A DNA stretch of 64,000 nucleotides from a virus (IMGVR_UViG_3300017527_000643:29972-93971), one strand, 5' to 3'; shown: positions 2,722-63,450, counted from the first letter of the stretch. The notes: generated from the letters alone by a model not told the origin. A program made the numbers and translations.

Positions 2722-4869
2722 ATGCCAATAAAAATCGATACAAATGATCTTATAGCTAAGGCACTTGTCCAGGAATTATATTCCAAACCGGATAAAGAAG
2801 ATCAGGTGCTGGCGACTAACGCGTTGGACAAAAGCGAAATTGTAAAATTTATGGAAGCGTATCCGCTAAAATCATCCCACGTAGACAATAATTTATTAGC
2901 TGTGGTACCACAAGATGTGTATCATCCAGAAATTACAATAGCTATTGATTTTACGCATCAATTTGTACAAAGTACAAAAGCTATTAAAGGGAAGCGCCCA
3001 TTAGACCCTCGGTTTTTTGCAAAATTTGCGGATAAGCTATTTGTATTTACAAAAAGATACTTTGATTATGTGATGTCTGTTGGAGATCGTGTAGATTTTG
3101 TAGCTGATATTACTAAAGATTATGAGTTTTCTTCGCACAATGAAGAGGACATGAACCTTTTTGTGAATCGTATCATTAACTATTTCCTAACGAACGTAAG
3201 TGTAAGTAAAGCACGTAAAGAGATAGGGAACGCATCTCTTACATTCAAGGATATAAAAAATCCACTAAAAGATGGTAAAGGCAACTACAGAATATTTTTT
3301 GATGGAGCATTTAGGATATTCAATCAATTATTAGCGCCTATGCTTCCAATTGTTATTTGGGGAAGGGGTCGTTTGTATAAGAACTGGTATTTTCCAATCT
3401 TTGATGGATTCATTGTTTCAACTTCCCCTACTGATTCTAATGGGTTTGTTGAGTACCAGATTTCTTGCAAGGACGTGCTTGAGTTAGCAAGAATAAGTGT
3501 GGAGATGATTAACCCTGCCATTCAGCAAGAAGCTGAAGATAAAAAAATAGATGCGATCAATCTTTTAAGTAAGCCGTTTTATGGGCATGACCACTTTACT
3601 ATAGTTGACCGCATGTTCAGAGGCGGTAAGCTAGTCTATGATCCTTCAGCACGCGCAAATCAAATTCAAGAAAAATTCAATGTAGATATAACCAGAAAGC
3701 CTACCCTTACAGATGCTCCCGCTATTCCTAAAGTACATGACCCAGAGCATGCCCCAATAGAAGAGGAAGGCTTACCATTAACTGCATTAGGTAGATTCGA
3801 TCCGGTTGATGGGGATGATTTTAAACTGAAGGAGGGTTTAGACGAAATTGGCGTGTATAAAGATCAGTTTACTGACAAATATAGATTAGATTATGTTTCT
3901 CATCAACGCGTGCGCAAACTCATTACATGGGGAGATAAAATGACTCCCTATAGAGTGTGGACGCTCCAATCCCCAGACTTATTTACATCTACCTTTGCTA
4001 CACGATTAGATGTAATAAATGAAGTTGCAGGCAAAGTTTATTATGATTTTTTTGTTGATGGATGCGGGAATGTTCATTATCATCCAATGCGGTTAACCAA
4101 TGACTTTCTAATGAACAATGCAACAACTTATGATCCATCATCTCCCAATAATAAAAAATTTGTTCCACGTTCATTTCCTCATTCCCAAGTAATTACTCCT
4201 GAAGAAACTTTTTCTGTGAATAGTGCATTAAATATTGAAGAATTGGTTACCTTTTTGCGCGTGACTGGTGTAGATGAAGTAATAGGCTCTACCGCTCCAG
4301 AACTTTTAACTTTATATGGAAGCGCTAGAGATAAACGAATGATATCCAAGTATGGATATCGTAGAAAAGAAATTAATAATACACTCTTCAATATCAATCA
4401 GAATATCGCTAAGAAGATAACATTTTTGGACGTAGCAGCTATGGTAATGATGCAGTTTGCTAACGCTGAGTTGTATACTCGTCAGCAGGTTATTGCTTTT
4501 CGACCAGAACTGGAACTGGCATCACCGGTAATTTTTAGTGAAGATAACAATGTATTTTATATAAATTCTATAGAGCATAATTTCGTGGTTGGTGGGGATG
4601 CTACGACCAACATCAATGGCAGTTTTGGAAGAAGAGATTTGGAATTGCCACCAGATTTGAATAGTTTACTAGTGGCAACACAAACCGTGTACGATCTTAA
4701 GGGATTCGAACCAGCAGAATTTTGGAGCAAACTAAAAATTGATGATTGGAAAAATTATTTAGATGCAACCCAAGATACTATTGAAGAACTAGAATTAATG
4801 GAATTTCTGGATAATACTTATGGATCTTCGGACGTAAGTGGGCCGGTTGATGACGATGAGTGGCTTTGA
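2722..4869 (+). CDS. Baseplate hub protein (gp27-like)
   Basis: IFDGFIVS...ISCKD, YDFFVDGCGNVHYHP, RPELELASP...FYINSIEHNF motifs; lies between tube initiator and spike. Confidence 0.65.
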   Translation: MPIKIDTNDLIAKALVQELYSKPDKEDQVLATNALDKSEIVKFMEAYPLKSSHVDNNLLAVVPQDVYHPEITIAIDFTHQFVQSTKAIKGKRPLDPRFFAKFADKLFVFTKRYFDYVMSVGDRVDFVADITKDYEFSSHNEEDMNLFVNRIINYFLTNVSVSKARKEIGNASLTFKDIKNPLKDGKGNYRIFFDGAFRIFNQLLAPMLPIVIWGRGRLYKNWYFPIFDGFIVSTSPTDSNGFVEYQISCKDVLELARISVEMINPAIQQEAEDKKIDAINLLSKPFYGHDHFTIVDRMFRGGKLVYDPSARANQIQEKFNVDITRKPTLTDAPAIPKVHDPEHAPIEEEGLPLTALGRFDPVDGDDFKLKEGLDEIGVYKDQFTDKYRLDYVSHQRVRKLITWGDKMTPYRVWTLQSPDLFTSTFATRLDVINEVAGKVYYDFFVDGCGNVHYHPMRLTNDFLMNNATTYDPSSPNNKKFVPRSFPHSQVITPEETFSVNSALNIEELVTFLRVTGVDEVIGSTAPELLTLYGSARDKRMISKYGYRRKEINNTLFNINQNIAKKITFLDVAAMVMMQFANAELYTRQQVIAFRPELELASPVIFSEDNNVFYINSIEHNFVVGGDATTNINGSFGRRDLELPPDLNSLLVATQTVYDLKGFEPAEFWSKLKIDDWKNYLDATQDTIEELELMEFLDNTYGSSDVSGPVDDDEWL

Positions 4870-4905
4870 TTAGTATTTTTGGTATTGTTTCTTTAGAGGA
4901 TTACC

Positions 4906-5988
4906 ATGGCATTAGACGCATTTTTATTCGAAGCACGCGTAACAGCGGTGTTTCCTGAAGAACGTGTGGTAAGTGCATCATGGCTTAAGTCTGGTGAACA
5001 TCAGATTTTTGATGCGCGTGTCATAATGAGTCATGGGAATTTTTCATTTCCTATGGTAGGCGATATCGTCCTAGTTATTGGTGGTCCTTCAAGTTACTAT
5101 TGCATAGGGAAAATAGATAATCAGTATAAAGTAAAGCTTGGGCTAGGCCAGGAAGATGAGGACGGTAATCCTGCTATAGTTAAGCTAGGTGATGGCACGG
5201 AAATTGGTGAAGATCTAAAAGCTAAAAAGGTACATGGAGGAGAAACTGTCCTTGGAAATTTAGCTAAAGGAATCTGGTTATCGCTTTCCAATTCGCGCAA
5301 TTTTTCCTTGATGGGTGGTGTAAACGAGGGGATCAAATATATTTACAATGCAGGAAAGACCACGATACGAACGCTACAAGTATTAAGTCAAACGATTGTA
5401 AATGATGCAAGCGGGCAAATTACCACATTGGGCGCTGTCATGCGCTTCTTTCCTGGTGTTGGTAACTTTATCGCTAAGAACCCACAAACGCAGCAAGGTG
5501 CAGTAGAAGCTACTACTACAATTTACGATACTGCTACTGCTCTTGCAAAAGCAACGTTCAAACTAGGTGATATTTTTATTGAACCGATTGCCTCTCAAGA
5601 TGCAGGGATACTTCAGCCCCATACGGAAGCAGGAGTCGCTGGTACAGCATCCTGGCTGAATGCCATATTAGCTGTAATGAACGCTGCGGGAATAGAAGTA
5701 GCTTCTATTAAAATGGACGCAGTTGGTAATTTAACAATAAACACTCCACTAGGCGGAAAAACAGTTATAAATTCGAGTACTACTACGCATATTATTAGCA
5801 CGGCGGGTACATGGATTGGCGGAACGACTGAAGGGCCTCCTGTAGACCCGATGGTGTTGGGGCAACAATTATATACTTGGCTTGCTGCGCATAAGCACCC
5901 CACGGGGACTGGCCCATCTGGGCCACCTACACCAGATGACCAAGCTACATTAGCTACAATCCTTAGTCTGAAAAACTTCGTAGACTAA
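4906..5988 (+). CDS. Baseplate central spike (gpV/gp5-like)
   Basis: N-terminal OB-fold-like ARVTAV...FPMVGDIVLV; C-terminal HKHPTGTGPSGPP (HxH metal-binding tip as in P2 gpV). Confidence 0.75.
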   Translation: MALDAFLFEARVTAVFPEERVVSASWLKSGEHQIFDARVIMSHGNFSFPMVGDIVLVIGGPSSYYCIGKIDNQYKVKLGLGQEDEDGNPAIVKLGDGTEIGEDLKAKKVHGGETVLGNLAKGIWLSLSNSRNFSLMGGVNEGIKYIYNAGKTTIRTLQVLSQTIVNDASGQITTLGAVMRFFPGVGNFIAKNPQTQQGAVEATTTIYDTATALAKATFKLGDIFIEPIASQDAGILQPHTEAGVAGTASWLNAILAVMNAAGIEVASIKMDAVGNLTINTPLGGKTVINSSTTTHIISTAGTWIGGTTEGPPVDPMVLGQQLYTWLAAHKHPTGTGPSGPPTPDDQATLATILSLKNFVD

Positions 5989-5989
5989 A

Positions 5990-6481
5990 ATGGCTCTTTT
6001 ACCCGCTACATTAGCTTCAGCATTGATTGCAAACATTGATAACTTCACGATGGAAGCACAGGCAACGGCTGCGTGGGCAGACTCTTTTGATACGTATTTT
6101 CAGACAGCGATGGCTGGTGCTGTTCCTATAATTCCTCCCCCGTTTACTGCTACAGCCGATGCACGGGATCAAATGGAAGACGCACTTACAGGAATGTCGG
6201 TGCAGGATATGGGGTCAACCAAAATCGTAGCTGGAATTACAGCATATTGGACACAACTAACTGCAGATGCAACGACTATTTTTTCTGCATGTACGGCTAT
6301 CGCAGCCCCCGGTGGTTTGGCTGCGCTTAAGGGTCTGTTGGATCTTGATTTTGCATCGAATACGACTGGTGTTGTAGCAAAAGAAGCGGCGTTAACTACA
6401 ATTGCAAATACGATCCATACTGCACAAAGCGGGGGAACTGCGACATTTCCAGCACCGGTTGGTGTGCAAACTATTGTTTAG
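5990..6481 (+). CDS. Putative baseplate/spike-associated protein
   Basis: Ala/Thr-rich ORF immediately after the spike gene. Confidence 0.45.
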   Translation: MALLPATLASALIANIDNFTMEAQATAAWADSFDTYFQTAMAGAVPIIPPPFTATADARDQMEDALTGMSVQDMGSTKIVAGITAYWTQLTADATTIFSACTAIAAPGGLAALKGLLDLDFASNTTGVVAKEAALTTIANTIHTAQSGGTATFPAPVGVQTIV

Positions 6482-48460: not shown

Positions 48461-50022
48461 AAAAATTAGCAACGATGGAAGAGGAGGAACTGCAGCGCAT
48501 ATACGAGTTGACCTACAAATATGGCTGGATCGTATCAGAAGAGCGCGAAAAGGGTTGGCTTCCTGACAGGGCCTATCTAGAAAAATCCAAAATAGAGAGT
48601 GCGTTGAACCACTGGATCAATTATGGGTTAGACGAATTAACAGAAACCTACGATAAGTACATTTACGATCATACCGCAGAAGGTTGGGTAGAGCGCTGGA
48701 TGGAAATGTCTGAAGGGGCAGATCTTCCTTCACTTTTAGAAGCTCTTAAAAGCTGGGCCAAAAGCGGTTCATCAGCATTGGGTGAGCGTGAAATCGAAGA
48801 ACAGTTCCTAGAATCTATATTCGAAGCTGCGGGAGGCGAAGACACTTTTCAACAAGAGTTGTATGAATACCTTGGCCCACAGTTTATAGAAAACCATATA
48901 GAAGAAATGGACGATGTGGAAGACCAAGAAAAAATGGAAGAAGAATGGGAGGAAGTACAAAGCTATTACGGCCCAGAAGAGGGTGCCGAAGATTTCATTT
49001 ACAAACATAACCTTGATAAGCAATTCCAGGAACATATAGCAGAAGCCGACTATGGCACAGTAAATTGGTTCGTAGATACGTACCATATTTCTGATGCGCT
49101 GGAACACTTTGGTCATCTGATTGACAATGAAGGATTCTTTAGAAACCTATTCTTTAATTCTTACGTGAAGAACTTCCCAGGATTGGATGAAACAGTTGAA
49201 GAGGTAGAAAGAGTAAAGGGCGAAATAGAATCTGCAAAGGCATCTGATATAAGTGCCAAGATAATTACCTTTCAATTAGGACTAACTACTGCACATCAGT
49301 TTGGCGCAATGGCAGATCACTTGCTAGAAACTGGCGTAGGAAGCGGTGAAAAAATACTAGATGAAATGTCTTCTGGGCCGCATGTGCAAGAATGGGATAG
49401 AGAGCTTGAACAGATTCTTGGACCAAAAATTCAAACAGAACAGCCTCCTGAGTACTTTACGCCTGGGGCTAATGAGAAATTAGCTCATCTTATGCAGGCG
49501 TTGTATATGCTTGCTTCGAATGATCTGTATCATGTTACCTATCTAAACAACGTTCCAGCAATAGAAGCAAAAGGATTAGCTATTTCTACAGGAGGGTCAT
49601 TTTCTGGCTATGGGTGGGGGGACGAAGGGCGAATTCACCTCACGGATAACGCTGGCATAGGCTTCTGGATGGATCGCTTTGCGCAGTTAGCCGAACACAA
49701 TGTGGAAAATCCTTTGGAAGATGGGCTGCTCCCGGTCGTAGTACGAATTCCAAAAGAAGCGCTGGAAGCTTTTGAACTGGAACTAGACGAGCACGGAACT
49801 AAAGATCAGGCATACGGCGAAGCGTATTACACCACTGCAGATATCCCATCGGATTATTTGGAAATATGGAATGGGAACGGCTGGGTAGCTCTAAGCAGTG
49901 TTGATTTGCTCACGATGCAGTCCACGGCAGAAGAGGCTGCATCAATTGATAAGTATGAAGAAGGCGGGGAAATGCACGAAGATATCATTCCTGATTTTGA
50001 TGTCTTCAACCCAAATATTTAG
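48457..50022 (+). CDS. Acidic two-domain protein: uncharacterised helical domain + ADP-ribosyltransferase-like domain
   Basis: IYELTYK...LPDRAY...TTAHQFGAMA domain; C-terminal LYHVT..NVPAIEAKGL...IHLT...YYTTADIP. Confidence 0.65.
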   Translation: MKKLATMEEEELQRIYELTYKYGWIVSEEREKGWLPDRAYLEKSKIESALNHWINYGLDELTETYDKYIYDHTAEGWVERWMEMSEGADLPSLLEALKSWAKSGSSALGEREIEEQFLESIFEAAGGEDTFQQELYEYLGPQFIENHIEEMDDVEDQEKMEEEWEEVQSYYGPEEGAEDFIYKHNLDKQFQEHIAEADYGTVNWFVDTYHISDALEHFGHLIDNEGFFRNLFFNSYVKNFPGLDETVEEVERVKGEIESAKASDISAKIITFQLGLTTAHQFGAMADHLLETGVGSGEKILDEMSSGPHVQEWDRELEQILGPKIQTEQPPEYFTPGANEKLAHLMQALYMLASNDLYHVTYLNNVPAIEAKGLAISTGGSFSGYGWGDEGRIHLTDNAGIGFWMDRFAQLAEHNVENPLEDGLLPVVVRIPKEALEAFELELDEHGTKDQAYGEAYYTTADIPSDYLEIWNGNGWVALSSVDLLTMQSTAEEAASIDKYEEGGEMHEDIIPDFDVFNPNI

Positions 50023-50067: not shown

Positions 50068-50676
50068 ATGAAGCGGAAAGTACCATGGATAGATTTTATT
50101 ATGCACGGCTCATTTACGTTACTTGGGCTGCTTGGTGTAATTTGCGTTTTAGTTTTTGATTATTCTATCGGTGCGATGATCGCATCATCGAGTGCCTTCC
50201 TTGGATTCCTGATTGTATTTATAGTTGTATTTTTCAGATGGGAATCGTCTGAACCAGACTATATCACTAAGCATGGGACCGCTGTTTGGACTGATGGATT
50301 ACCAATAATTGATAGAGAACGGATGGAACAAGCATTAGATTTTTACATAAGAAAGTTACCTTCCTACGCTTCTCAGGTAGAAATCTCTACCGAACAATTG
50401 GAATATATGCTGAAGGGTGCACAAATCGAATGGAGCAGAAAGAAGATCAGTGCAATTGGCATTGGTTGGCAAGTGAAAGATAAAGCAGGATTGCAAAGTG
50501 GAAAAGCAATAAAGGTATATTGGTCTGGATCAATTGTAAATTCTGCCTTGTACCACGAATTGCACCATATGGTGGATGAAATAGTTATTGGACTACCGCC
50601 AGATTACAAGCACGAGCGTACAGGGTGGTGGTCTATTATTCCTGCGTTGAAAAAGGATTTTGGGAGTCAAACATAA
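50068..50676 (+). CDS. Membrane-anchored HExxH metallopeptidase-like protein
   Basis: Two N-terminal TM helices; ALYHELHHMVDE. Confidence 0.6.
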   Translation: MKRKVPWIDFIMHGSFTLLGLLGVICVLVFDYSIGAMIASSSAFLGFLIVFIVVFFRWESSEPDYITKHGTAVWTDGLPIIDRERMEQALDFYIRKLPSYASQVEISTEQLEYMLKGAQIEWSRKKISAIGIGWQVKDKAGLQSGKAIKVYWSGSIVNSALYHELHHMVDEIVIGLPPDYKHERTGWWSIIPALKKDFGSQT

Positions 50677-52817
50677 TGAATAAATCTGCGCGATATGGGA
50701 GTGGTATAGAAACCCAGGTATTAGAAGATATTTATGAATTGACGTACAAGCTGCAAATGCTCAACCAGGAAGAGAAGCGCGGAGATTACGGACTTCCCCA
50801 ATCACTTCCTGATCGGGCTTACATTGAAAAATCAAAAATAGAAACACAATTGTCAAAGAAACTAAGTGAAGTTCATGAAAGAATGGTAGAAGTCTATGAT
50901 GATTGGATTAGCGATCATGCCCCAGACCCAAGCCATTTTTCTGAGCAGGCATACGAATATTGGGGCGAGCGCCGGTATGAAGCAGAACACGGATACGGGC
51001 ATTTGGGGGATGTCGCAGATCTATTTGGAGACAATGATGTATTAGAAACTGTCGTGGAATTTGTGCAAGATTTACGTTCAGAAGAAGAGGAGGAAGAAGA
51101 AGTTGAAGAGGAAGATCCTTATGATGCGTGGATCAAATATTTAGATTCAATCAAAGCTAAAAAAGCCCAGCAACAAGAATTTGAATTTATGGAGTCTCCT
51201 GAGTTTGTACCTACTGAAGTTGAAGAGGTTGAACCGGAAAAACCTCTTGAAGAAATGACCATCGAAGAACTGGCAGAATTAGAAGAAGTCAAAGAGAACT
51301 TATCAGATGTCCTGGATGAAATTGAAAAACAAAATTACTTTGATACTTTTATAGAATGGCAAATAGAAGCAGAACAGGAACAATTCGAGGATGATGGGCC
51401 ATATGCTGATGTAAAGGAAATGCGGTCAGCTATGGATGAATGGGATAGTTTATCCCTTAGTGACAGAATCATATTGTTCCAAGAAGCGCTGACCACCATG
51501 CACAACAGCGGCGAAATGGCTCAATATCTTTTGGATGATGAGAACGCTGTAGAAATTCTAAACCAGTTGTCGGCTGGCCCCCATGTAGAAGAATGGGATT
51601 ACGATTTGTCCAAGATGTTGGGCTATCCACTAGGCTCTAAACTAGCGCCGACGCAGGAGTGGTTCGTGCCTGCAGCACTGAAACACCTAGCTGCAGCAAT
51701 TCTGGCGCTTGAACGCCCAGGGGAAACTATAACTCCTGAAGATTTAAAACAGATTTATGAGGGAACTTACAAACTACAAATGTTAGATCAGGAAGAACAA
51801 TTAGGAGAATATGGGCTTCCTAAACAACTGCCTGATAGAGCTTATATAGAAAAATCAAGAGTAGAAACTCAATTAGCGAAAAAGTTGGATGAAGTTTATT
51901 CTTCAGTAATTGAAGCTTATGATTATTGGATTTCTATACACGATTACCCTATTGATTGGGCGGTAGAACAGGTTCAACAGTTTTGGAAGAACGAAATACG
52001 TTTTTCAATTGAGGATCAGTATCAAGGTCTTAATCTCATTTTTAGTATATTAGATAGAGATGAGGTTATGGGAACTATAAGAGAATTTATAAAAGAAAAA
52101 ATAGCCCAAGGAGATGATACTTTAGTATCAGTTCTTGAATACGCAGGAAAATCTTTAGAAGAAATAGCTTATGAAGACGTTTCTGAAGCGCTTGCTCCGT
52201 ACACGTCCGAACTTCTTGATAGGATTGAGCAGGAAGAGTATTTTGTAAGATCCCTAGCAGACGAGGCAGAAAAGGATCTGCAAGACGAACACGAAGGAAG
52301 TGCCTTGGGTGCAATTAAGCAAATGAGGGCCGCGCTTGACGAATGGAATCAGCAAGATATTAGCGGTAAGATCATATTGTTCCAGGAAGCTTTGACTACA
52401 ATGCACAACAATTCCGAAATGGCCAATTATATTATTAAACACCAAGCTCCTATACAGCTTTTAAATGAATTATCACAAGGCCCAGATGTTCCCCAATGGG
52501 ATTACGATCTAACTAAATTGCTAGGGCATCCTCCTGGGTCTACTATAGCTCCAAAGGAACAGCAGTGGTTCACGCCCGCTTCCTTGAGGGGCATCTCCAG
52601 AGTTATTGCTATGCTTACTGGAGGCGGTATGGAAAAGGTAGCTGTGATTAGAAAGTGCAAGAAAGGTGATTCCGAAGAAGGGAAACCGTGGTGTCTCTAC
52701 ACGCATGATGGGTCTAGATTGCTTGGTAGGCATCCTTCCAAAGAATCTGCGGTCAAGCAGGAACAGGCAATAAAAGCACAGGGCAGGCTAGCAAAAGTTA
52801 TTGCAGTACTCAGGTAG
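50676..52817 (+). CDS. Acidic polyprotein: two copies of the 48457 helical domain + small head-associated-type domain
   Basis: Repeats IYE(L/G)TYKLQML...LPDRAYIEKS...IILFQEALTTMHN..EMA...WDYDL; C-terminal IRKC..KPWCLYTHDGSRLLGRHPSKESAVKQEQAI; TAATG overlap start. Confidence 0.7.
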   Translation: MNKSARYGSGIETQVLEDIYELTYKLQMLNQEEKRGDYGLPQSLPDRAYIEKSKIETQLSKKLSEVHERMVEVYDDWISDHAPDPSHFSEQAYEYWGERRYEAEHGYGHLGDVADLFGDNDVLETVVEFVQDLRSEEEEEEEVEEEDPYDAWIKYLDSIKAKKAQQQEFEFMESPEFVPTEVEEVEPEKPLEEMTIEELAELEEVKENLSDVLDEIEKQNYFDTFIEWQIEAEQEQFEDDGPYADVKEMRSAMDEWDSLSLSDRIILFQEALTTMHNSGEMAQYLLDDENAVEILNQLSAGPHVEEWDYDLSKMLGYPLGSKLAPTQEWFVPAALKHLAAAILALERPGETITPEDLKQIYEGTYKLQMLDQEEQLGEYGLPKQLPDRAYIEKSRVETQLAKKLDEVYSSVIEAYDYWISIHDYPIDWAVEQVQQFWKNEIRFSIEDQYQGLNLIFSILDRDEVMGTIREFIKEKIAQGDDTLVSVLEYAGKSLEEIAYEDVSEALAPYTSELLDRIEQEEYFVRSLADEAEKDLQDEHEGSALGAIKQMRAALDEWNQQDISGKIILFQEALTTMHNNSEMANYIIKHQAPIQLLNELSQGPDVPQWDYDLTKLLGHPPGSTIAPKEQQWFTPASLRGISRVIAMLTGGGMEKVAVIRKCKKGDSEEGKPWCLYTHDGSRLLGRHPSKESAVKQEQAIKAQGRLAKVIAVLR

Positions 52818-54679: not shown

Positions 54680-55174
54680 ATGAAACGTATGCGTGTAGTA
54701 GCCCAGGTGTCCCCCATTGAAGCAGCGCTTTTTGAACTGCATAAAGTATTAGATCAGTTCTTTAAGCAAAAAGAAAATATAATCTATGGAACGCTTTATC
54801 TCCATGATGGTTCAACCGACATGGGATATAAAGCACCGTGGGGGGAATACGAAGAAGAAATAGATGTTGAGGTTAACGTAAAATTCACCCATGATGGGGA
54901 CGATTCCTTTATTGAGATTTTGTTTGGCCGTTCTGGTATCGGCGGCATATACGGTGCTCAGTCAGATGACGGAAACATAGAATTCATTATAGATATTGGG
55001 TCTGATGAAGAAACTGTTGGGACTTCTGCGATACCATTGGAAGCAGTTGCTAAAAACGTTTATGATAAAATAGAAGAATCAGACTTACCAGATGAGCACG
55101 CAGTTGACCGTGCGCAAGATGCTTACGATTCTGCGCAAGAAGATAAATGGGATTCACGGCGGGACGACTATTAA
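54680..55174 (+). CDS. Acidic protein with MKRMRVVA leader
   Basis: Start re-assigned after AGGAG; leader shared with five other ORFs. Confidence 0.75.
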   Translation: MKRMRVVAQVSPIEAALFELHKVLDQFFKQKENIIYGTLYLHDGSTDMGYKAPWGEYEEEIDVEVNVKFTHDGDDSFIEILFGRSGIGGIYGAQSDDGNIEFIIDIGSDEETVGTSAIPLEAVAKNVYDKIEESDLPDEHAVDRAQDAYDSAQEDKWDSRRDDY

Positions 55175-55187
55175 CTGGGAGTACCTA

Positions 55188-55601
55188 ATGAAACGTGTGC
55201 GTGTTGTAGCACAAATGTTAGCTAAAGATAAAATTGTTTTTCATTTGAAAAGCGCTATCCTAATATTAGGGGGACTGAAAGACCATGCTAAAACTGAATT
55301 GGGATTAGCTGGGCTATTCGATAAAGATAGTGATTATGATGGTATGATTGGTAAAGCAGTTATGGAATTAGTAGATACATTTGCTTCACAGGGCCATAGC
55401 GGATTTAGCGCCCAATGGGTATTAGAAGTATTTAATGAAGTAGCCCAATTCAAACCGCTTACGCCCATAACCAGTAATTCAGATGAATGGGAAGATGTAG
55501 CACGTTATGGAGATGGTAGTCCTCTTTGGCAGAATAAACGAGCACCAATGTACTTCAGTGAGGATGGTGGTAAAAATTGGTATGATGTAAACGAAATATA
55601 A
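55188..55601 (+). CDS. Phage protein (QGHSGFSA motif) with MKRVRVVA leader
   Basis: Start re-assigned after GGGAG. Confidence 0.75.
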   Translation: MKRVRVVAQMLAKDKIVFHLKSAILILGGLKDHAKTELGLAGLFDKDSDYDGMIGKAVMELVDTFASQGHSGFSAQWVLEVFNEVAQFKPLTPITSNSDEWEDVARYGDGSPLWQNKRAPMYFSEDGGKNWYDVNEI

Positions 55602-55612
55602 TAGTTTTGTAG

Positions 55613-55685
55613 TATAATGGATCTAGGGCTGGATAAGCCAGTCCTATAAACCGGTGTCGATTCGGGTATAAACTCGCGTCGATCC
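55613..55685 (+). promoter_or_regulatory. TATAAT promoter and two-hairpin 5' leader
   Basis: TAGGGCTGG-ATAAG-CCAGTCCTA and TCGA..CGGGT-ATAA-ACTCG..TCGA before the AAGGAGG RBS. Confidence 0.5.
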
Positions 55686-55699
55686 TGAAGGAGGAAGTC

Positions 55700-56542
55700 A
55701 TGATGAAGGTTACTAGCGATCTGTTTCAACTCAAAGTTCTCGTTAACTCCAAACCAATCCAGGAATATCACAAGGATTCCAAGACCTTTGTGGAAGGGCG
55801 GCAAGGTTCGAATTTTGAACTGCTGCTGAAAAACCTTACTCCACGCAGGTTATTGGTACACCCTACCGTGGATGGCTTGTCAGCTATGACAGGCAAGGAA
55901 GCCTCCAGGAACGATTACAGCGAAGGGTACGTACTGAACCCCTTCCAGGAGATGTCTGTACCTGGCTGGAGGCTCGACAACGAGTCTGTGGCCCGTTTCC
56001 TGTTCGCTGGTGAGGGCAGAAGTTACGCAGAGCAGACAGGACAGCCGAAGAATAAGGGAGTCATAGCTGCAGCAGTCTGGGAAGAACGCATACCTACTTG
56101 GCAGTCGAAAGTAATGTTCAATATTGAAACATCGGACTCTATTACATTTACAGATGGCACAGACAATGCCGATCCAGTCGGTGGCATCTATAATGTAAAC
56201 ACTGAGCCTGCATCTCATGGTGGGGAAGAACTGACCATTGGTAGTCTTTACACGCCAGAGCGTGGCGAAAAGCTTTCTAGGGGGCGAAAGCGCCGGGTAA
56301 GCACAAAGAGTGTAAATAACCTGGGAACTGGTTTTGGCAAGAAAGCAGACCACAACGTAATGACAGTCAAGTTTGAAATCAACCAGGCTGAACCGGATGC
56401 TATTGCCGTTATTTACTATGATGACTTCAGGGGGCTAGCAACGCGAGGGATAAAAATAAGCAGAAAGCCCCAAAGTGACAGCCTTCCTAACCCGTTTCCC
56501 AAGGATACGGGGTGTGTTCCGCCGCACGGTTGGCGCGGCTAA
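55700..56542 (+). CDS. Hypothetical protein (Ig-like N-domain)
   Basis: FVEGRQGSNFEL...TVDGLS...VPGWR...GVIAAAVWEE...LGTGFG; strong RBS. Confidence 0.7.
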   Translation: MMKVTSDLFQLKVLVNSKPIQEYHKDSKTFVEGRQGSNFELLLKNLTPRRLLVHPTVDGLSAMTGKEASRNDYSEGYVLNPFQEMSVPGWRLDNESVARFLFAGEGRSYAEQTGQPKNKGVIAAAVWEERIPTWQSKVMFNIETSDSITFTDGTDNADPVGGIYNVNTEPASHGGEELTIGSLYTPERGEKLSRGRKRRVSTKSVNNLGTGFGKKADHNVMTVKFEINQAEPDAIAVIYYDDFRGLATRGIKISRKPQSDSLPNPFPKDTGCVPPHGWRG

Positions 56543-56558
56543 TCTGTCAAGAAATTAG

Positions 56559-56590
56559 TTTACAAAACTAAACATGGTCCTTACTATACT
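56559..56590 (+). promoter_or_regulatory. Early-type promoter TTTACAAAACTAAAC family
   Basis: TTTACA-17-TACTAT; TTAGTTT-aca-AAACTAA dyad. Confidence 0.6.
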
Positions 56591-56607
56591 GGCAGGAGGT
56601 AGGGTCC

Positions 56608-56802
56608 ATGTTTTGTCTAATCTGTTGCAAGCAAATCGATCCAGGCCAACACACCTGCGGTAATTCTTACTGCCAGGAAGCTGACTTCTTCTTCCACCGG
56701 GCCAGAAACTCCAGAAAGAACAGCAAGAAACAGCGGGAAGCGTACAACCATGCGCTGAAGGTTGCCGCCATCCGACATAAACAGGTAGCTCGGCACGCCT
56801 AA
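56608..56802 (+). CDS. Small Cys-rich protein
   Basis: CLIC...CGNSYC; AGGAGG RBS. Confidence 0.55.
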   Translation: MFCLICCKQIDPGQHTCGNSYCQEADFFFHRARNSRKNSKKQREAYNHALKVAAIRHKQVARHA

Positions 56803-56824
56803 TTTAGTATAATGAAAAGAGATA

Positions 56825-57112
56825 ATGGCTAGACGCCTAAAAACTTTAGCTAAAGAGATAAACGACACGCTTCCTGGTTACACAGCGGAGATTGTCCAAG
56901 GCTATTGCAACACAGACCGAAAGATTGCAGGCACACGCCTACGTTGGGAAGGCAAAGGAAGGGAAGGAAATAGGCTTATCGTAAAGAATTCAAAAGGCGA
57001 AGTTGTGTTCGATCACAATTCCGCTGAAACATACAGATGCAACGAAGAAGTGGAAGAATGGGTCAAGTATGTAAAAGAGCATGGCAAACCTTATAATCCG
57101 TTTGAAAGGTAA
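56825..57112 (+). CDS. Hypothetical protein
   Basis: TATAAT upstream. Confidence 0.6.
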   Translation: MARRLKTLAKEINDTLPGYTAEIVQGYCNTDRKIAGTRLRWEGKGREGNRLIVKNSKGEVVFDHNSAETYRCNEEVEEWVKYVKEHGKPYNPFER

Positions 57113-57115
57113 ATA

Positions 57116-57589
57116 ATGGCTAAAAAAATTGTAATGAAAAAGCATTTTGTAACCTTTCTTAGCCCTGGAACGTTCTTCAATGAACAGTCTTCAAAAGAAG
57201 TAAAAAAGTGGGATGTGGTCAAGGCAGTCAAGATGGCCGATACTGTTTTGGAACGCCATGGAGCTACACCCTATGCATTTTATTTCTCCACACAAGGGCG
57301 CGGCGCTAAGGATTTGAACAGCAAAGAAATTGACCGAAGCCCAACGTATTTCCTGGGAGGAAAGATCGAAACGTTGGAAGAAGTAGAAGCACGCAATGCC
57401 CCTGACGAAAAAATTTTACGGTCTAACATGCGGGGCAACAACTACCATAAAATCATAATAAATAACAACTCTTGGAAGATTACAGTTCCATTTAACGAAG
57501 ACGAGGGCGATGTACTTCTGGATTACATTCCTCCGAGGGACAGAAATGAAAAAAAGAAAGCCAAAAGAAGTAAAAAAAGCAAAGCCTGA
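57116..57589 (+). CDS. Hypothetical protein
   Basis: FLSPGTFFNE...RHGATPYAFYF; AAGG RBS. Confidence 0.65.
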   Translation: MAKKIVMKKHFVTFLSPGTFFNEQSSKEVKKWDVVKAVKMADTVLERHGATPYAFYFSTQGRGAKDLNSKEIDRSPTYFLGGKIETLEEVEARNAPDEKILRSNMRGNNYHKIIINNNSWKITVPFNEDEGDVLLDYIPPRDRNEKKKAKRSKKSKA

Positions 57590-57713
57590 ACAGACTGAAC
57601 CCGACTGGACCAAGAAGTGTATTGTCTGTGGGGCAACTCCTATCGTTCCTATGACGGAGATGTGCGGGCCGTGTACTTTTGGAGAGGCTGAAACCGCAGG
57701 AGGAAATTGGTGA
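57546..57713 (+). CDS. Small zinc-finger protein
   Basis: CIVCGATP...MCGPCTFGE; GAGGG RBS. Confidence 0.55.
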   Translation: MKKRKPKEVKKAKPEQTEPDWTKKCIVCGATPIVPMTEMCGPCTFGEAETAGGNW

Positions 57714-57720
57714 GGCGCAA

Positions 57721-57894
57721 ATGACAGAAAAAAACTTAGCTAAAATTTTGGTAGATAATGTTTCCACAGCCATGCAGCGCGAAAAGATGCTGCGTGATGT
57801 CGTCATGATCTTTATGGATAAGATAAAGGAATACAAAATCGAATTGACCGAAGAAGAGAAGTTGAAGATTCAAAAACTTCTGACAATGGAATAA
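57721..57894 (+). CDS. Hypothetical protein
   Basis: GAGG RBS. Confidence 0.5.
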   Translation: MTEKNLAKILVDNVSTAMQREKMLRDVVMIFMDKIKEYKIELTEEEKLKIQKLLTME

Positions 57895-57897
57895 GCC

Positions 57898-58350
57898 ATG
57901 GGCGATCCCACAAAAGAACTTGAAACAATGATGATGCTTGGGCAGATAGCAAAAACTATGCTCGAAGCCCGACAAGCTGAATTCCATAAGTCCAATCCAC
58001 ACATGAACGAAGCTGAATCCAAAGCAGCGGATTTACTTCAGAGCATGGTGCAAAAGAAATTCGATCAGATTATAGAAAAGAACAAAAAGGAAGGCTTTGA
58101 CTTTAGTGGAATGGATGTGCTGGAGTTACGGCTTTGGGCACCTGATGCTAAATGTGTGTTGATGCAGTTGCATGATTACCTCATGAAGGAATATGGGTTG
58201 TTCCACCACGTCGCACTTTCATCCGGGATAGTTATGATTGCTAAAGATAAACTGTTCTTCATCAGCCTGGTCATAAAGAAAATGAGCCAGGAAGATTTGT
58301 TCGGAGACAAAGATGGAATGCCCACTGTGCAAACTGGAAAAGAAGACTGA
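57898..58350 (+). CDS. Hypothetical protein
   Basis: 150 aa ORF in the operon. Confidence 0.55.
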   Translation: MGDPTKELETMMMLGQIAKTMLEARQAEFHKSNPHMNEAESKAADLLQSMVQKKFDQIIEKNKKEGFDFSGMDVLELRLWAPDAKCVLMQLHDYLMKEYGLFHHVALSSGIVMIAKDKLFFISLVIKKMSQEDLFGDKDGMPTVQTGKED

Positions 58351-58585
58351 TTGGTATTTTGAAAACGTGATGCTCGCAGTGCTTGAATGTAAAACCTGCA
58401 ACCTTCCCATGGTCGTGCTCAAACGGCATACCATGGAGCCAACAGCTAAAGAAGAGAAGGCTATGATTAGGGAGCTAACCAAGGTTGCAGACGCCTTCTT
58501 TGATGAAGGCAACTGGGCGCTAAGGAAGTATCAGCGCAACATCAAGGACCACCTTCACTTCCACGCTATCCCCAATAGGAGCTAA
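58313..58585 (+). CDS. HIT-like protein
   Basis: CPLC N-terminus, VVLKRH, HLHFH triad. Confidence 0.7.
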   Translation: MECPLCKLEKKTDWYFENVMLAVLECKTCNLPMVVLKRHTMEPTAKEEKAMIRELTKVADAFFDEGNWALRKYQRNIKDHLHFHAIPNRS

Positions 58586-58588
58586 ACA

Positions 58589-58939
58589 ATGGAAGAATGG
58601 GCGAAGGAATGGCAAGAGGGTGATCCAGACTTCGATGAAGAATCCATCGAATGGCTAAAGAAGCGCCCTTCATCTATAACGAAGTTGCTAATAAGGTTCC
58701 CACCCTCTTGTTTGGTCCAGGCAAACAGAACCCTAATGTGTCCTGCTCCTGGGGAAACAGGCATTGTAACGAGCTATTTTGAACCGGATGATGAGCATCC
58801 TGAAGGAATGGTGTCTGTTAGGAACCACGGCACAGATACACCAGTTAAGGCGCAATGTGAACCTGTATGGCTCAATGTTGTTGGCTACCATAGGGGCATC
58901 ACCCCTGAAGTAGTCAAAAAATTATTGGGGGAAGAATAA
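58589..58939 (+). CDS. Hypothetical protein
   Basis: AGGAGCTAAACAATG junction. Confidence 0.6.
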   Translation: MEEWAKEWQEGDPDFDEESIEWLKKRPSSITKLLIRFPPSCLVQANRTLMCPAPGETGIVTSYFEPDDEHPEGMVSVRNHGTDTPVKAQCEPVWLNVVGYHRGITPEVVKKLLGEE

Positions 58940-58942
58940 AGA

Positions 58943-59182
58943 ATGCACAAAAGAAAAAGAGGCATTAGATCATCAGCGCGTGAATTAGTAGATGAACAAG
59001 CTAAGAAACTTCGTAAACAAAAGCGCCCATACGCGGTAGGTCCAGCCGTCATAACCTTTCCTGGCTGGATGGTCATTCCGCTTCTTTGGGGCGCAATGGA
59101 AATGCTAAGAATGCCAGCGTTCCAGACATGTAAAGAATACATTATAGAAACGCAGAAACTATATAAGAAAGGTAAGGACTAA
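58943..59182 (+). CDS. Hypothetical protein
   Basis: In the operon. Confidence 0.5.
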   Translation: MHKRKRGIRSSARELVDEQAKKLRKQKRPYAVGPAVITFPGWMVIPLLWGAMEMLRMPAFQTCKEYIIETQKLYKKGKD

Positions 59183-59185
59183 ACA

Positions 59186-59404
59186 ATGGAATGCGCTGAA
59201 GGGTGTGAATGTAAATATGTGTTTGCTCACTGTGCAAATTGCCTAAAGAGCAATGAGCCGTCTGGTGTGATGGTTATGCTAATGTTTGACACCACTGTAG
59301 AAGCATATTGCAGGGTGTGCGGTTTACCGGTTTGGAGCCTTACAGGAGATTTTCACTTTGCTAATCTCCAGGAGGCAGAAGAACCGGGTGCACTAAAGCA
59401 TTAA
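59186..59404 (+). CDS. Small zinc-binding protein
   Basis: HCANC...YCRVC. Confidence 0.55.
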   Translation: MECAEGCECKYVFAHCANCLKSNEPSGVMVMLMFDTTVEAYCRVCGLPVWSLTGDFHFANLQEAEEPGALKH

Positions 59405-59414
59405 GGAATAAACA

Positions 59415-59606
59415 ATGACAGACGCGGAAAAGTATAAGCTACACAACCTTTGCTACCAGGCTAAGCTAGGAAAACCTATTAGTGAAGAAGACAGCAAATG
59501 GCTAAGAAAGATGTATAAGGCACACCCAGAAGAATATAAGGTGGTTCATAGAAAAGCTGCTCAAGAAGCAATAGATACCGTCAATCCTTTCGCTAACAGA
59601 ACCTAA
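59415..59606 (+). CDS. Hypothetical protein
   Basis: AGGAATAAACAATG start. Confidence 0.55.
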   Translation: MTDAEKYKLHNLCYQAKLGKPISEEDSKWLRKMYKAHPEEYKVVHRKAAQEAIDTVNPFANRT

Positions 59607-59653
59607 ACAATTTAGTCCCTCCTGGGCTATGCTATACAGCCAGGAGGGTACCG

Positions 59654-60001
59654 ATGAACATCCACGCCCAAAAAGCCATTCTACGCATCTCTAAATGTAC
59701 GAAAATGCTGGCAGATGAAGTGTATCGTCCTGATAAGCATGGGCGTCCTGAAGCATTAGAGATAGCAACTCAAATAGACGATAAATTTGTTGATATCCTG
59801 GAGCTAATAAATGAATTATTAGAGCTAGGCAAATTTGAGCTAAATGATCCTGCATCAGAAGAGTTGGCAGATACGCTTTTCAAGATTACAGAATACGCGC
59901 TTGAACATGTAGAAGCATTTTTAGGGAAAAGTAAACAAAGATCAATAGAAGACATTCCTGATGAAGAACTTGCTGAATCCATTGACTGGATTCAGGAATA
60001 G
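59654..60001 (+). CDS. Acidic protein with basic N-terminal extension
   Basis: AGGAGG RBS after TGCTATAC. Confidence 0.65.
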   Translation: MNIHAQKAILRISKCTKMLADEVYRPDKHGRPEALEIATQIDDKFVDILELINELLELGKFELNDPASEELADTLFKITEYALEHVEAFLGKSKQRSIEDIPDEELAESIDWIQE

Positions 60002-60012
60002 GGAGCAACCTA

Positions 60013-60276
60013 ATGACGCATAAACAGGTTACGAAGCCGCTGTTCAAGAAGACTGCATATGATCCTGTAGAGGAAGCAGAAACTAAAAGTAAACAAGAAC
60101 TGCTGCTGCAGATGATCGATTATAAATATACAAATCCTAAACAAGCTATTGGTGATCTTGTTGAGTCAATGACCAGTGAGGATTTGGACATCTGGCTTTA
60201 TGAACTAAAGAAAGAACTGGATTGGGACAATATAGATTCAGACCCCTCCCACGCACCGGATGGAAGTGACCAATGA
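60013..60276 (+). CDS. Acidic protein with basic N-terminus ending KKTA
   Basis: GGGAG RBS. Confidence 0.6.
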   Translation: MTHKQVTKPLFKKTAYDPVEEAETKSKQELLLQMIDYKYTNPKQAIGDLVESMTSEDLDIWLYELKKELDWDNIDSDPSHAPDGSDQ

Positions 60277-60647
60277 AACGCATGAGAGTGGTGGCGCTAA
60301 CCCGCGAAGAGCTACGAGAAATGGCATTAGAGGATATCCGGGAAACAGACGGCGATTGGCACCAGCGATACACTCAAGCTAAAGGCTTAGTGGAAGATCA
60401 CATAGCTAATGAGCTAGATGAAAAGCTCGCCAAGCTTCATGATCAAATGGCCCACCTTGAAGACCAGCGCCAAGAACTACTAAACTCGCTAGCTGATGAA
60501 GATTGGGAAGCGTTCAATAAAATTCTTCCCCAGAATCTTGTAAACGAGCTTACCTATTTCAATTCTGATCAAGCTATCGAAGACCGCGTACAGGAAATAT
60601 TGAGTGGTGATCTTGATCGTTGGGATGATGAAGTACCACCCGAATAA
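60273..60647 (+). CDS. Acidic coiled-coil protein with MKRMRVVA leader
   Basis: ATGA overlap; leader motif. Confidence 0.75.
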   Translation: MKRMRVVALTREELREMALEDIRETDGDWHQRYTQAKGLVEDHIANELDEKLAKLHDQMAHLEDQRQELLNSLADEDWEAFNKILPQNLVNELTYFNSDQAIEDRVQEILSGDLDRWDDEVPPE

Positions 60648-60650
60648 ACA

Positions 60651-61208
60651 ATGAAACGAATGCGGGTCATAGCGACTAAGCTTCGCGTAGAGTCTTTAGC
60701 ACTCAAAGATTATAATCAGGAATATGTGGACGATCCTGACTTTGTTGGGTTTCACTGCCAGCAAAATGAAAGAAGCAAATACGATGACTTCATTGGAGCA
60801 CAGTACGGGGGTGTGGAAGGTGGCCAGAACTACCTGATACATATCCTGGATGGCTTGTATGACGATATGCGCGACGAGGCAACGGAACTAGGATTGATGG
60901 ACACACCAGACAATCCTTATGACGATGACTATGAAGAGTGGGCGAACAAAGTAGAAGACTTCCTGGCATCCAAAAACATAAAGTGGATCTTCGTATCCGA
61001 AACCAAACCGCTCTCATCCTCTGGTGAAACCTACGGCGGCTATGGCGACAACTGCTACTATGTAATGCTCCCGCAAGATCTTATCATAACCGAATTTCAT
61101 GATGTCGGAGTGAACGATGCGGCTATGGCCTATGTGTACGACGCAAACAAAGGGCAACCTAAACTTATAGAAGTTGAAGAGCAGGAATCCGAAGACGCGG
61201 AATGGTGA
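60651..61208 (+). CDS. Acidic protein with MKRMRVIA leader; possible divergent ADP-ribosyltransferase fold
   Basis: VGFHC ... WIFVS ... YGDNCYYV pattern. Confidence 0.6.
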   Translation: MKRMRVIATKLRVESLALKDYNQEYVDDPDFVGFHCQQNERSKYDDFIGAQYGGVEGGQNYLIHILDGLYDDMRDEATELGLMDTPDNPYDDDYEEWANKVEDFLASKNIKWIFVSETKPLSSSGETYGGYGDNCYYVMLPQDLIITEFHDVGVNDAAMAYVYDANKGQPKLIEVEEQESEDAEW

Positions 61209-61209
61209 A

Positions 61210-63207
61210 ATGAAGCGCATGCGTGTTACAGCACTCTCTGTCAGAGCACAATACCTGTACCACGTTACAGATAGCAAGAACCTCCCCGACATAGCAGCCG
61301 AAGGATTGGCGATTGAAGAAGGTGGCGCACTCTCTAAAGGCCAGCATAAAGAATACTCGCAGGATAAGATCTTCCTTACAGATAAAGACACCATTCCCAA
61401 TTGGGAATATTATGTAAAGGAAATGACCTACCCGGACGACGACCCAGCCGTGCTAAGAGTAAACACCGATTACCTGGAAGAGATCCTGGTGGATGAAAAG
61501 GGTACGCATGACGCTCCTAAACTGATACCATTTGATTACAACAAACCAAGATTCCTGCCTGACCCAGACCCGACCACGTTTTCTTATTATACGGAAGAAA
61601 ACATTCCACCTGAAGCTATAGAAGTGCAAACCCCTGAAGGATGGGTCGCACTAGCAGCCCACCAGATACGTGCGTTCGAATGGCTGAATTACGTAGCTGA
61701 TGTGATACCGGGCGAAGTAGAAGCAGAGCGCATTATAGAAAAGATGGTGGTAAACATTGCCGACAAAATTGGTATAGATAAAGAGTCACTGGCGACTGAG
61801 CAAAAGAATACCACTTCAATTTTGTCAAAAATAGAGAACATGTTTGAGACTAACCCAGAGGCATTCGATAGGCTTTTGGAAAGTTCATTTTCTGCAGCAC
61901 AGCCAGACGATCCGACCCAGTTTGAATTGCCACCAGATGTACGTAACCTATTAGACCCTGCTCATTGGGAATTTCTTACAGAGGAAGACCCACGTCCAGA
62001 AGAAGATGAAGAAGAACCACCAAAAGTAAAGAAGCCGCCAGAAGTAAGGAAACCACTAGAAGTAAAGAAGCCAGTAAAGCGGAAGAAACAAGAACCCAGA
62101 TCAATCTATGATGAATTTGGTTTAGGTACGCCAAAAGACCAACCCAAGAAACCTGTTGAGCCTTCCAGCGTTCCTAAATGGGAACCGCTGGTAGAACAGC
62201 CTAAAAAGAAACCTAAAGAAAGAAAAGTCAAAGAAAAGGAACCTAAAGTAAAGGAACCAAGGCCCCCTAAAAAGCGGACGCCTAAGAAGCACCCCCCTGC
62301 TCCCCCCAAGCCTTACCCGAATTTAATTCCTATGGAAGAGCCACCGGAATCAGTACGGGAAAGCGAATTCTGGCGCGATGATGTGCGGGATGTTCTTAAA
62401 AGTAAATATATCGATCCTGTTGCTGCTCCCCAGGTAATAAACTTTATGTTTTATGTGGTGGAGCAAACCCATCCCGCACCCAGTTATGAGGCGCTGAAAA
62501 ATGAGATAGACTTTCTCTATGCATATCAGCCCGAAGAGTTTACTGAAGTACTAAACACTTCCATTGAGATGTACGAGAAAGAGCAACAGTTTGGACATGT
62601 AATAGAAAGACCTGAAGCAGAACCATTGGGATTTAAAGATTACTTTGAACTACCTGACGTTGAACTTGGCGAACCTGAAGATCCACTAAAGGGCGTTCAG
62701 GTTTCAGAAGAGCTTAAAAAGTATTTGAGAACTCCTATAGATGAGCTTATCCCATATACAGGACCACCAATTTCGCAGAGGAGTAATCAAATAAAGAGAA
62801 TGAGAACCAGGGCAGAAGCAAACCTCCAAACTAAACTCATCCAACTGAAACCACAAATGGCGAACGCTGCCCAGAAAGTTTACGACGAATGGGAACAAGA
62901 CGAAGAAGGCATCGATGAAGTGTTTGGTGCTGGTGGTCCATGTGATCAGATAGCAGATGCAATAGCAGGAGTCATAGTAGACAACATAGATGTAAACATA
63001 ACCGAAGGTGGTCATGAAGGCGACGACCATGCCTGGACCATAGCGTACACAAACACTGAAGCTTATGGAATAGACATCCCTCCAGAAACCTACGAAGAAG
63101 GTGGAGGCTATCGCTGGACTAAACTGAAGGATGTAAAGTTTACTCCAGAAGATGTAGAAATATTTCCACTGCATGAATTCTTGGAAGATATACTTGAGGA
63201 GGAATAA
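61210..63207 (+). CDS. Polyprotein with MKRMRVTA leader: ART-like domain, Pro/Lys-rich linker, acidic domains
   Basis: LYHVTDSKNLPDIAAEGL...IFLT...VLRV...YYTEENIPPEAI; C-terminal GGPCDQIADAI...DDHAW...DIPPETYE domain. Confidence 0.7.
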   Translation: MKRMRVTALSVRAQYLYHVTDSKNLPDIAAEGLAIEEGGALSKGQHKEYSQDKIFLTDKDTIPNWEYYVKEMTYPDDDPAVLRVNTDYLEEILVDEKGTHDAPKLIPFDYNKPRFLPDPDPTTFSYYTEENIPPEAIEVQTPEGWVALAAHQIRAFEWLNYVADVIPGEVEAERIIEKMVVNIADKIGIDKESLATEQKNTTSILSKIENMFETNPEAFDRLLESSFSAAQPDDPTQFELPPDVRNLLDPAHWEFLTEEDPRPEEDEEEPPKVKKPPEVRKPLEVKKPVKRKKQEPRSIYDEFGLGTPKDQPKKPVEPSSVPKWEPLVEQPKKKPKERKVKEKEPKVKEPRPPKKRTPKKHPPAPPKPYPNLIPMEEPPESVRESEFWRDDVRDVLKSKYIDPVAAPQVINFMFYVVEQTHPAPSYEALKNEIDFLYAYQPEEFTEVLNTSIEMYEKEQQFGHVIERPEAEPLGFKDYFELPDVELGEPEDPLKGVQVSEELKKYLRTPIDELIPYTGPPISQRSNQIKRMRTRAEANLQTKLIQLKPQMANAAQKVYDEWEQDEEGIDEVFGAGGPCDQIADAIAGVIVDNIDVNITEGGHEGDDHAWTIAYTNTEAYGIDIPPETYEEGGGYRWTKLKDVKFTPEDVEIFPLHEFLEDILEEE

Positions 63208-63210
63208 ACA

Positions 63211-63450
63211 ATGAAACGCATGCGAGTAGTAGCCTACCAACCGCAGGCTAAAGTCATCGTGGAATGCTCACACTCTGGGGCCGAAGCACTTCAAGCTCTG
63301 ATTGAATATATAAAGTCAAACGGCAACACCGGACACTCCTTTTCTATCATCGTAGACCCTGATGACAAAGATGCCAACGAATCATTCGGCTGGGACGGTG
63401 ACGGATCAGACAGCATCGGGGATATCAAAGTAGAGAACCTGGAGGACTAA
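63211..63450 (+). CDS. Small acidic protein with MKRMRVVA leader
   Basis: GAGGAGG RBS; GHSFSIIVDP...GWDGDGSD. Confidence 0.75.
   Translation: MKRMRVVAYQPQAKVIVECSHSGAEALQALIEYIKSNGNTGHSFSIIVDPDDKDANESFGWDGDGSDSIGDIKVENLED

Follow-up and report, generated by a model that had tools for sequence, protein, structure and literature searches.

The virus contig IMGVR_UViG_3300017527_000643 (G000; 93,971 bases, 51% complete according to CheckV) was analyzed for a short N-terminal peptide, MKR(M/V)RV(V/I/T)A, hereafter the tag, with which six genes on the plus strand begin (starts at 54680, 55188, 60273, 60651, 61210 and 63211). Coordinates refer, unless another contig is named, to the window, i.e. 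the whole stretch of 64,000 nucleotides that was analyzed and that makes up the right two thirds of the contig (contig positions 29,972 to 93,971). The left end of the contig is the 3' end of a terminase gene, and the window is preceded, immediately on its left, by the genes for the portal, a head-maturation protease, a scaffold-like protein and a capsid protein of the HK97 fold; the scaffold-like gene, which is placed between the protease and capsid genes, encodes a Pro/Ala-rich protein. The structural module is of the myovirus type, and the window itself contains baseplate and tail genes, a gene for an NAD-dependent ligase, and a long stretch of small genes. The protease is represented by a match to phrog_18299 (E 1e-37); no match was found for it in Pfam or in PDB sequence searches.

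A previous reading made from the DNA sequence only (in the following, the sequence-only reading) had listed six leader-bearing starts, three of them masked by longer, mechanically called open reading frames (ORFs). All six were found at the coordinates given there, and the masking was borne out for the genes at 54680, 55188 and 61210. Ribosome-binding sites of the GGAG type, 6-7 nucleotides upstream, favour the MKR start, and their spacing disfavours initiation at the fourth codon rather than the first. A six-frame check of the whole contig for further tags yielded no other MKR.R start and one internal, in-frame copy. The pattern MR[VIT].A occurs six times in the called proteins, compared with 0.45 times in within-protein shuffles (maximum 3; 300 shuffles). 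Pairwise identity of the tagged genes over codons 2-8 is 0.91 at codon positions 1 and 2, and 0.48 at position 3; the corresponding values for codons 9-12 are 0.27 and 0.18, and the 24 nucleotides upstream of the tagged starts show a pairwise identity of 0.35. For the Arg, Val and Ala residues of the tag, nearly every synonymous codon is in use. Since codon positions 1 and 2 are conserved, and third positions and flanking DNA are not, selection acts on the peptide; the view that a DNA or ribosome-binding-site repeat is not the conserved element is thus borne out by the codon-position identities.

The bodies that follow the tag show no mutual similarity in BLASTP (E > 0.4) and are all acidic (net charge -8 to -56), which agrees with their first description as unrelated and mostly acidic. 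A Sec, Tat or lipoprotein signal peptide was not found in the six proteins; the hydrophobic core is absent, and residue 8 is followed by polar or acidic residues in every case. The case for the shorter basic-x-Ala starts on other genes in the window is weak. The properties of the tagged genes and of related features are summarized in Table 1. No match was obtained for four of the six bodies in Pfam, PHROGs or PDB sequence searches, and the bodies that could be characterized appear to be of the counter-defence or host-modifying type (Tad3, an ART-like domain, and a predicted Cys-His-Asp enzyme domain).

Table 1. Tagged genes and related features of the window.
Feature	Coordinates	Strand	Description
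Untagged ART-like paralogue	49471..50022	+	C-terminal module of the 48457 protein, after an amphipathic junction ending in Ala
Multi-module protein	50676..52817	+	Tag-like (R/K)-V-I-A motifs at the junction to the last small module and at the C-terminus
Tagged gene 1	54680..55174	+	164 residues; acidic body (net -26); no family match
Tagged gene 2	55188..55601	+	137 residues; tag and short linker, then Tad3 domain (residues 30-132)
Tagged gene 3	60273..60647	+	124 residues; acidic, helical-looking; no family match
Tagged gene 4	60651..61208	+	185 residues; acidic (net -28); no family match
Tagged gene 5	61210..63207	+	665 residues; tag, ART-like YLYHVT domain, Pro/Lys-rich spacer, internal tag copy, C-terminal Cys-His-Asp domain
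Internal tag copy	62791..62817	+	IKRMRTRAE; in-frame, within the 61210 protein
C-terminal Cys-His-Asp domain of the 61210 protein	62818..63204	+	Predicted from alignment and AlphaFold2 model
Tagged gene 6	63211..63450	+	79 residues; acidic; no family match

The body of the 55188 protein is Tad3 (PF25185; E 2.8e-32, 111.4 bits against a curated cut-off of 27), and at least one body is therefore a known counter-defence protein. Tad3 inhibits type I Thoeris through binding of ThsB (PMC13728456). A total of 554 Tad3 homologues were found, and the starts of 120 of these were compared. More than 100 lack the tag, which answers the earlier question of whether homologues of this body exist elsewhere without the leader, and most start directly at the domain; about 11 extra N-terminal residues are confined, among the 120, to the 55188 protein and its nearest relative (79% identity), which has a shorter start, MRIVAE. 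A second, N-terminally extended class of Tad3 proteins was considered as a wider leader family and was ruled out, as the alignment shows the extension to be an extra Tad3 helix that is present also in the 55188 protein, after the tag.

The 61210 protein carries two domains, and its last 130 residues represent a separate domain family. The internal copy of the 61210 protein corresponds in position to the N-terminus of the two closest stand-alone homologues of this C-terminal domain (P0121 and P0122), both of which start with the exact tag; the 61210 protein is therefore read as a fusion of two formerly separate tagged genes. The former start codon of the internal copy is now ATA and its Arg codons are AGA and AGG, with the residues K, R, M, R and A kept; in the AlphaFold2 model the copy is coil and the C-terminal domain is modelled with a predicted local distance difference test score (pLDDT) of 92.5. 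About 30 further homologues have no tag and begin at the domain, some of them with other basic N-terminal extensions, and no homologue was found in cultured phages. In the alignment, Q28, C51 and H80 are invariant and D95 is near-invariant, with C51 at the start of a helix (51-65). The best structural matches of the model are arylamine N-acetyltransferase (Z 5.8, the highest score), LapG, the C3 domain of PMT, SseI, protein-glutaminase and vasohibin; the scores are modest and all are Cys-His-Asp enzymes of the transglutaminase/papain type, and a fold of this kind is predicted for the C-terminal domain.

For the N-terminal, ART-like domain of the 61210 protein, 44 homologues were detectable, including one stand-alone protein with the tag (P0299); many others begin at the domain, and three are proteins of 1400-2000 residues with 3-6 copies. 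Invariant Y-H-x-T, G-L and (F/Y)-Y-x-E motifs were recognized among 27 aligned homologues, and by these motifs the domain is a candidate ADP-ribosyltransferase (ART) of the H-Y-E type; Pfam, PHROGs and PDB sequence searches gave no match. Taken together with Tad3 and the Cys-His-Asp domain, these homologues show that the tag has been gained and lost independently of the body.

The Cys-His-Asp domain is furthermore found as one module within a multi-domain protein of 3695 residues on another contig (L028:80-11167, plus strand), whose ORF combines eight or more ART-like (Y-H-G-T) domains with modules of other kinds, K-T-A-A recurring between them; this contig of 85 kb, 26% complete according to CheckV, is a fragment of what is probably a very large phage genome. 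The same two cargo domains were observed in other lineages with other N-terminal extensions (P0131, P0146, P0160-P0163, P0284 and P0285), i.e. an amphipathic type, M-N-x-L-x-K-A-L-K-L-L, which is found on both domain families, and also a Gly/His-rich type. It may be that the tags differ from one phage lineage to another and that the pool of domains is common to them.

An exact degenerate DNA scan for the tag gave only three internal chance matches in IMG/VR, and at least 120 single matches in GTDB genomes, all apparently due to chance among those listed. The same scan of metagenomes gave at least 120 matches, mostly bacterial signal peptides; among those listed, three loci (L060, L150 and L138) are real. 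The loci L060/L150 and L138 add two further bodies and contain homologues of genes that neighbour the tagged genes in the window. At least nine unrelated body families carry the tag in this phage and its close relatives. Locus L060 also encodes, in a row on the minus strand (3300-6300), proteins that resemble nicotinamidase, nicotinate phosphoribosyltransferase and NAD synthetase, as judged from their N-terminal sequences, and which possibly represent an NAD-salvage counter-defence set.

A large protein collection contained 222 relatives of the capsid protein, on contigs of up to 199 kb, and one that is 95% identical to that of the window phage (P0169) is encoded on a contig of 184 kb; on these grounds the full genome is probably 180-200 kb in size. 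The tag probably belongs to a single clade of uncultured myoviruses whose genomes measure roughly 180-200 kb. Rctr197k, the closest phage in GenBank (63% GC content; 44% identity of the capsid protein), has no tag cluster. Its genome (KX853510.1, 129000-142000; L167) shows a DNA-level repeat at several gene junctions on the plus strand, which surfaces as spurious antisense ORFs with like starts.

Three closer relatives (G001, G002 and G003) were obtained from IMG/VR, with capsid proteins that are 67-84% identical to that of the window phage. The exact tag was not found in these three contigs, nor did a relaxed pattern match; a sister motif was found only with a script that clusters N-termini. 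In G001, two adjacent genes start with MRVEAS and a third has the motif after four residues; furthermore, a protein of 674 residues has three internal copies, and one is found in a DUF192 protein, the gene for which lies between those for terminase and portal. The homologous protein of G002 has two internal copies in tandem, and a further copy in G002 is N-terminal. In G003, an N-terminal copy is found on a gene inserted in the head-tail module, and an internal copy matches the extended leader of G001 over 12 residues. The common core is a small residue, Leu/Met/Phe, Arg, Val/Ile, any residue, and Ala. The internal copies were considered as hidden start sites, which was ruled out because their Leu codons are CTC, TTA and CTT.

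An orthologous gene upstream of terminase carries each lineage's own version of the motif, with the exact tag of the window in L138, and adjoins a sigma-factor-like gene in G002 and G003. The latter gene (sigma-70 region-2-like; G002:58647-59162 and G003:4868-5494) is immediately followed by the tagged orthologue and the terminase/head module, and may encode the late sigma factor of the clade. In the window phage, the DUF192 protein has R-R-I-E-A exactly where the proteins of the relatives end and an extra C-terminal part begins. The motif not only begins single genes; it also joins modules inside larger proteins.

Two other large proteins of the window are built of modules. The 50676 protein ends in a module of about 65 residues (52600-52817), with R-V-I-A at its boundary and K-V-I-A-V-L-R as its last residues, and it contains two copies of a domain that is present also in the 48457 protein; no relatives of the latter were found in IMG/VR. 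A small protein of 90 residues (58313-58585, plus strand) has two CxxC pairs and a C-terminal, histidine-triad-like motif, H-x-H-x-H-x-x.

Motifs that resemble the tag were also observed in the head proteins. The portal has a hydrophobic-(R/K)-(R/K)-x-A motif about 40 residues in, flanked by a variable basic N-terminus on one side and a Gly/Ser linker on the other; the motif is kept in the window phage and in nine of ten distinct relative sequences with a full N-terminus. The extreme N-terminus of the scaffold carries (L/I)-R-x-R-(V/I)-A, and (K/R)(K/R)-A-Q is found around residue 20, ahead of the Pro/Ala-rich stretch; apart from the tagged proteins, no protein of the contig but the scaffold has R-x-R-V-(x)-A within the first 16 residues. 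The N-terminus of the protease contains an invariant (Y/F)-K-T-A. An alignment of 115 capsid proteins shows R82 (72% basic), A84 (77%) and S85 (65%), followed by an indel-rich stretch, and in the AlphaFold2 model of the capsid protein (pLDDT 77) residues 1-83 form a separate small module and residues 84-91 a linker with a pLDDT below 50; the remaining 294 residues match mature capsid proteins of the HK97, T5 and D3 type. As read from sequence, these head motifs would suit a protease whose cleavage sites have Ala at P1 and a basic residue at P3 or P4.

The N-terminal module of 83 residues of the capsid protein (contig positions 12366-12620, left of the window) consists of beta strands and one helix, before the HK97 body; Asn55-Ala56 within it is invariant in the 115 relatives and may mark a second processing or contact site. 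The portal gene of G002 (L037, about G002:67227-69761) contains an intein-like insertion of about 230 residues, with Cys at its start and His-Asn at its end, followed by Ser, which is absent from the window phage, G001 and G003.

For the function of the tag, we favour a portable N-terminal sorting and processing signal with a functional core of hydrophobic-Arg-Val/Ile-x-Ala. The tag would dock its protein to the core of the assembling prohead (scaffold or portal), the head-maturation protease would then cut after Ala8, and the mature acidic proteins would be carried in the head and enter the host together with the DNA. We infer docking, cleavage and delivery alike by analogy to known head-assembly systems, and assign to such a tag for loading into the prohead and subsequent cutting after Ala a probability of roughly 45%. 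With respect to the sequence-only reading as a whole, the peptide-level, portable tag and its presence or absence on homologous domains stood up, at least one body (Tad3) is a known counter-defence protein, and cleavage after Ala and head loading are plausible only. A more far-reaching version is possible, if rather doubtful: a clade-wide, co-evolving address of eight residues (core hydrophobic-R-V-x-A) would fill the capsid with a changeable set of ready-made counter-defence and host-modifying proteins, including a Thoeris inhibitor that is delivered before phage gene expression, and Ala-specific trimming at V-x-A by the head protease would proceed as in herpesvirus assemblin.

The closest known counterpart is the capsid-targeting sequence (CTS) of phage T4, by which the internal proteins and Alt are loaded into the prohead before trimming by the head protease (PMC3012670, PMC9026906, PMC5512222). 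As with the T4 CTS (IPI-III and Alt), one short N-terminal peptide is found on otherwise unrelated and interchangeable accessory proteins, a prohead protease and a scaffold are encoded, a counter-defence protein and a putative ART-like enzyme are among the bodies, and the tag precedes an unstructured linker. In contrast to the T4 CTS, there is no sequence similarity, the cut is predicted after Ala with Arg at P4 and not after Glu, the motif of the tag also joins modules in large proteins, and the presence of the tagged proteins in the virion is a prediction. As its residues differ throughout and it ends in Ala, the tag would be an analogue of the T4 CTS and not a member by descent; a T4-CTS-like system with a different sequence and a different predicted cutting rule is, by this analogy, the best reading.

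Polyvalent proteins are domain-shuffled phage effectors with predicted delivery alongside the DNA (Iyer, Burroughs, Anand, de Souza, Aravind 2017, PMC5512222). Similarly, ART-like and peptidase-like domains occur here in one polypeptide (the two enzyme-like domains of the 61210 protein) and are shuffled between phages, and the L028 protein, with its eight or more domains, has a domain in common with the 61210 protein; unlike in polyvalent proteins, most of the putative effectors are encoded by single-domain genes, each with its own leader, and no fusion to MuF or portal was seen. In the giant phages phiKZ and SPN3US, many head and ejection proteins are trimmed at a short motif (PMC5694885, PMC10052503). 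A single short motif that recurs on portal, scaffold and capsid protein as well as on many head proteins of the non-structural kind would be a feature in common with these phages; their proteases, however, cut after Glu, at (S/A/G)-x-E, and their propeptides are long and dissimilar, whereas a fixed 8-mer is found here.

Herpesvirus assemblin, of which the phage prohead proteases are distant relatives, reportedly cleaves at (V/L/I)-x-A|S. The tag resembles such sites in having Ala at P1, Val/Leu/Ile at P3 and often Ser at P1', and the version in G001 fits exactly; unlike the protease of the window phage, which is known by its PHROG match only, assemblin is an enzyme of animal viruses. Cargo-loading peptides of encapsulins are usually C-terminal, uncleaved, and of a different consensus. 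They are comparable to the tag in that a short terminal peptide would direct diverse cargo into an HK97-fold shell. The C-terminus of assemblin itself is Ala (PMC4498786).

Several observations count against prohead loading with cleavage after Ala. The basic residue is at P3 in most of the head-protein motifs, i.e. (K/R)-T-A, versus P4 in the tag, R-V-x-A, and only the portal motif fits both registers. The tagged genes are located within a run of small genes that resembles an early or accessory region, and a promoter and terminator scan was uninformative, the promoters of the tagged genes not being classable. Furthermore, a dedicated partner enzyme could be encoded elsewhere in the genome, since the contig represents only about half of it. 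A partner of this kind belongs to an alternative that we consider improbable, in which the tag is a docking peptide for another shared component (for instance a chaperone, a modifying enzyme, or an adaptor for degradation by which the early counter-defence proteins would be removed at a set time) and is bound with no head loading. A short, basic, unstructured N-terminal peptide on acidic proteins would suit this role, and the tandem internal copies in G002 would suit avidity; on the other side, no radical-SAM gene (no PF04055 match) is present in the contig, which covers about half a genome, no conserved enzyme is encoded beside the tagged genes in G000, L060, L138 and G001, and the resemblance to the N-termini of portal and scaffold is left unexplained. 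That resemblance also weighs against a signal for processing alone, i.e. a pro-peptide or polyprotein junction at which cleavage would set modules free or activate them, with a protease other than that of the head at work (for example a host enzyme or the Cys-His-Asp domain of the phage itself) and no role in capsid loading. The position of the motif between modules of large proteins, the giant proteins in which the same domains are strung together with recurrent K-T-A-A junctions, and the tag on the papain/transglutaminase-like domain itself are in its favour, yet a cleavage site alone needs no eight near-invariant residues at the extreme N-terminus, it is hard to see what a single-domain protein would gain from the loss of eight residues unless sorting were involved, and most homologues of the Cys-His-Asp domain are found in phages that lack the tag; processing alone is an unlikely explanation.

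A nucleic-acid or translational feature, such as an initiation enhancer or a recombination linker for the shuffling of gene cassettes, would be in keeping with the tight packing and translational coupling of the genes and with AAA as the second codon, which favours initiation. It is very unlikely, given that synonymous sites are near random with the residues fixed, that the upstream DNA is not conserved, that the motif also occurs internally, in-frame and with non-start Leu codons, and that the relatives keep the core and change the first residues. Chance, or a functionless remnant of paralogy, can hardly be the explanation at all: single copies of the same 8-mer are indeed common in bacterial genomes, mostly in signal peptides, but MR[VIT].A, with an expectation of 0.45, is represented by six copies within 9 kb, the bodies behind these copies are unrelated, and the same tag is found on homologues of different bodies in other contigs.

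If loading into the prohead and trimming after Ala apply, the proteins that an uncultured phage clade injects could be listed by a simple sequence rule, and inhibitors such as Tad3 would be predicted to act pre-made, upon co-injection. The tag would also offer a short portable peptide for the packaging of foreign proteins into capsids, and phage head maturation would gain an Ala-specific cleavage rule, near to the rule of herpesviruses. The gain, loss and fusion events described above show the movement of effectors between single genes and giant multi-domain proteins.

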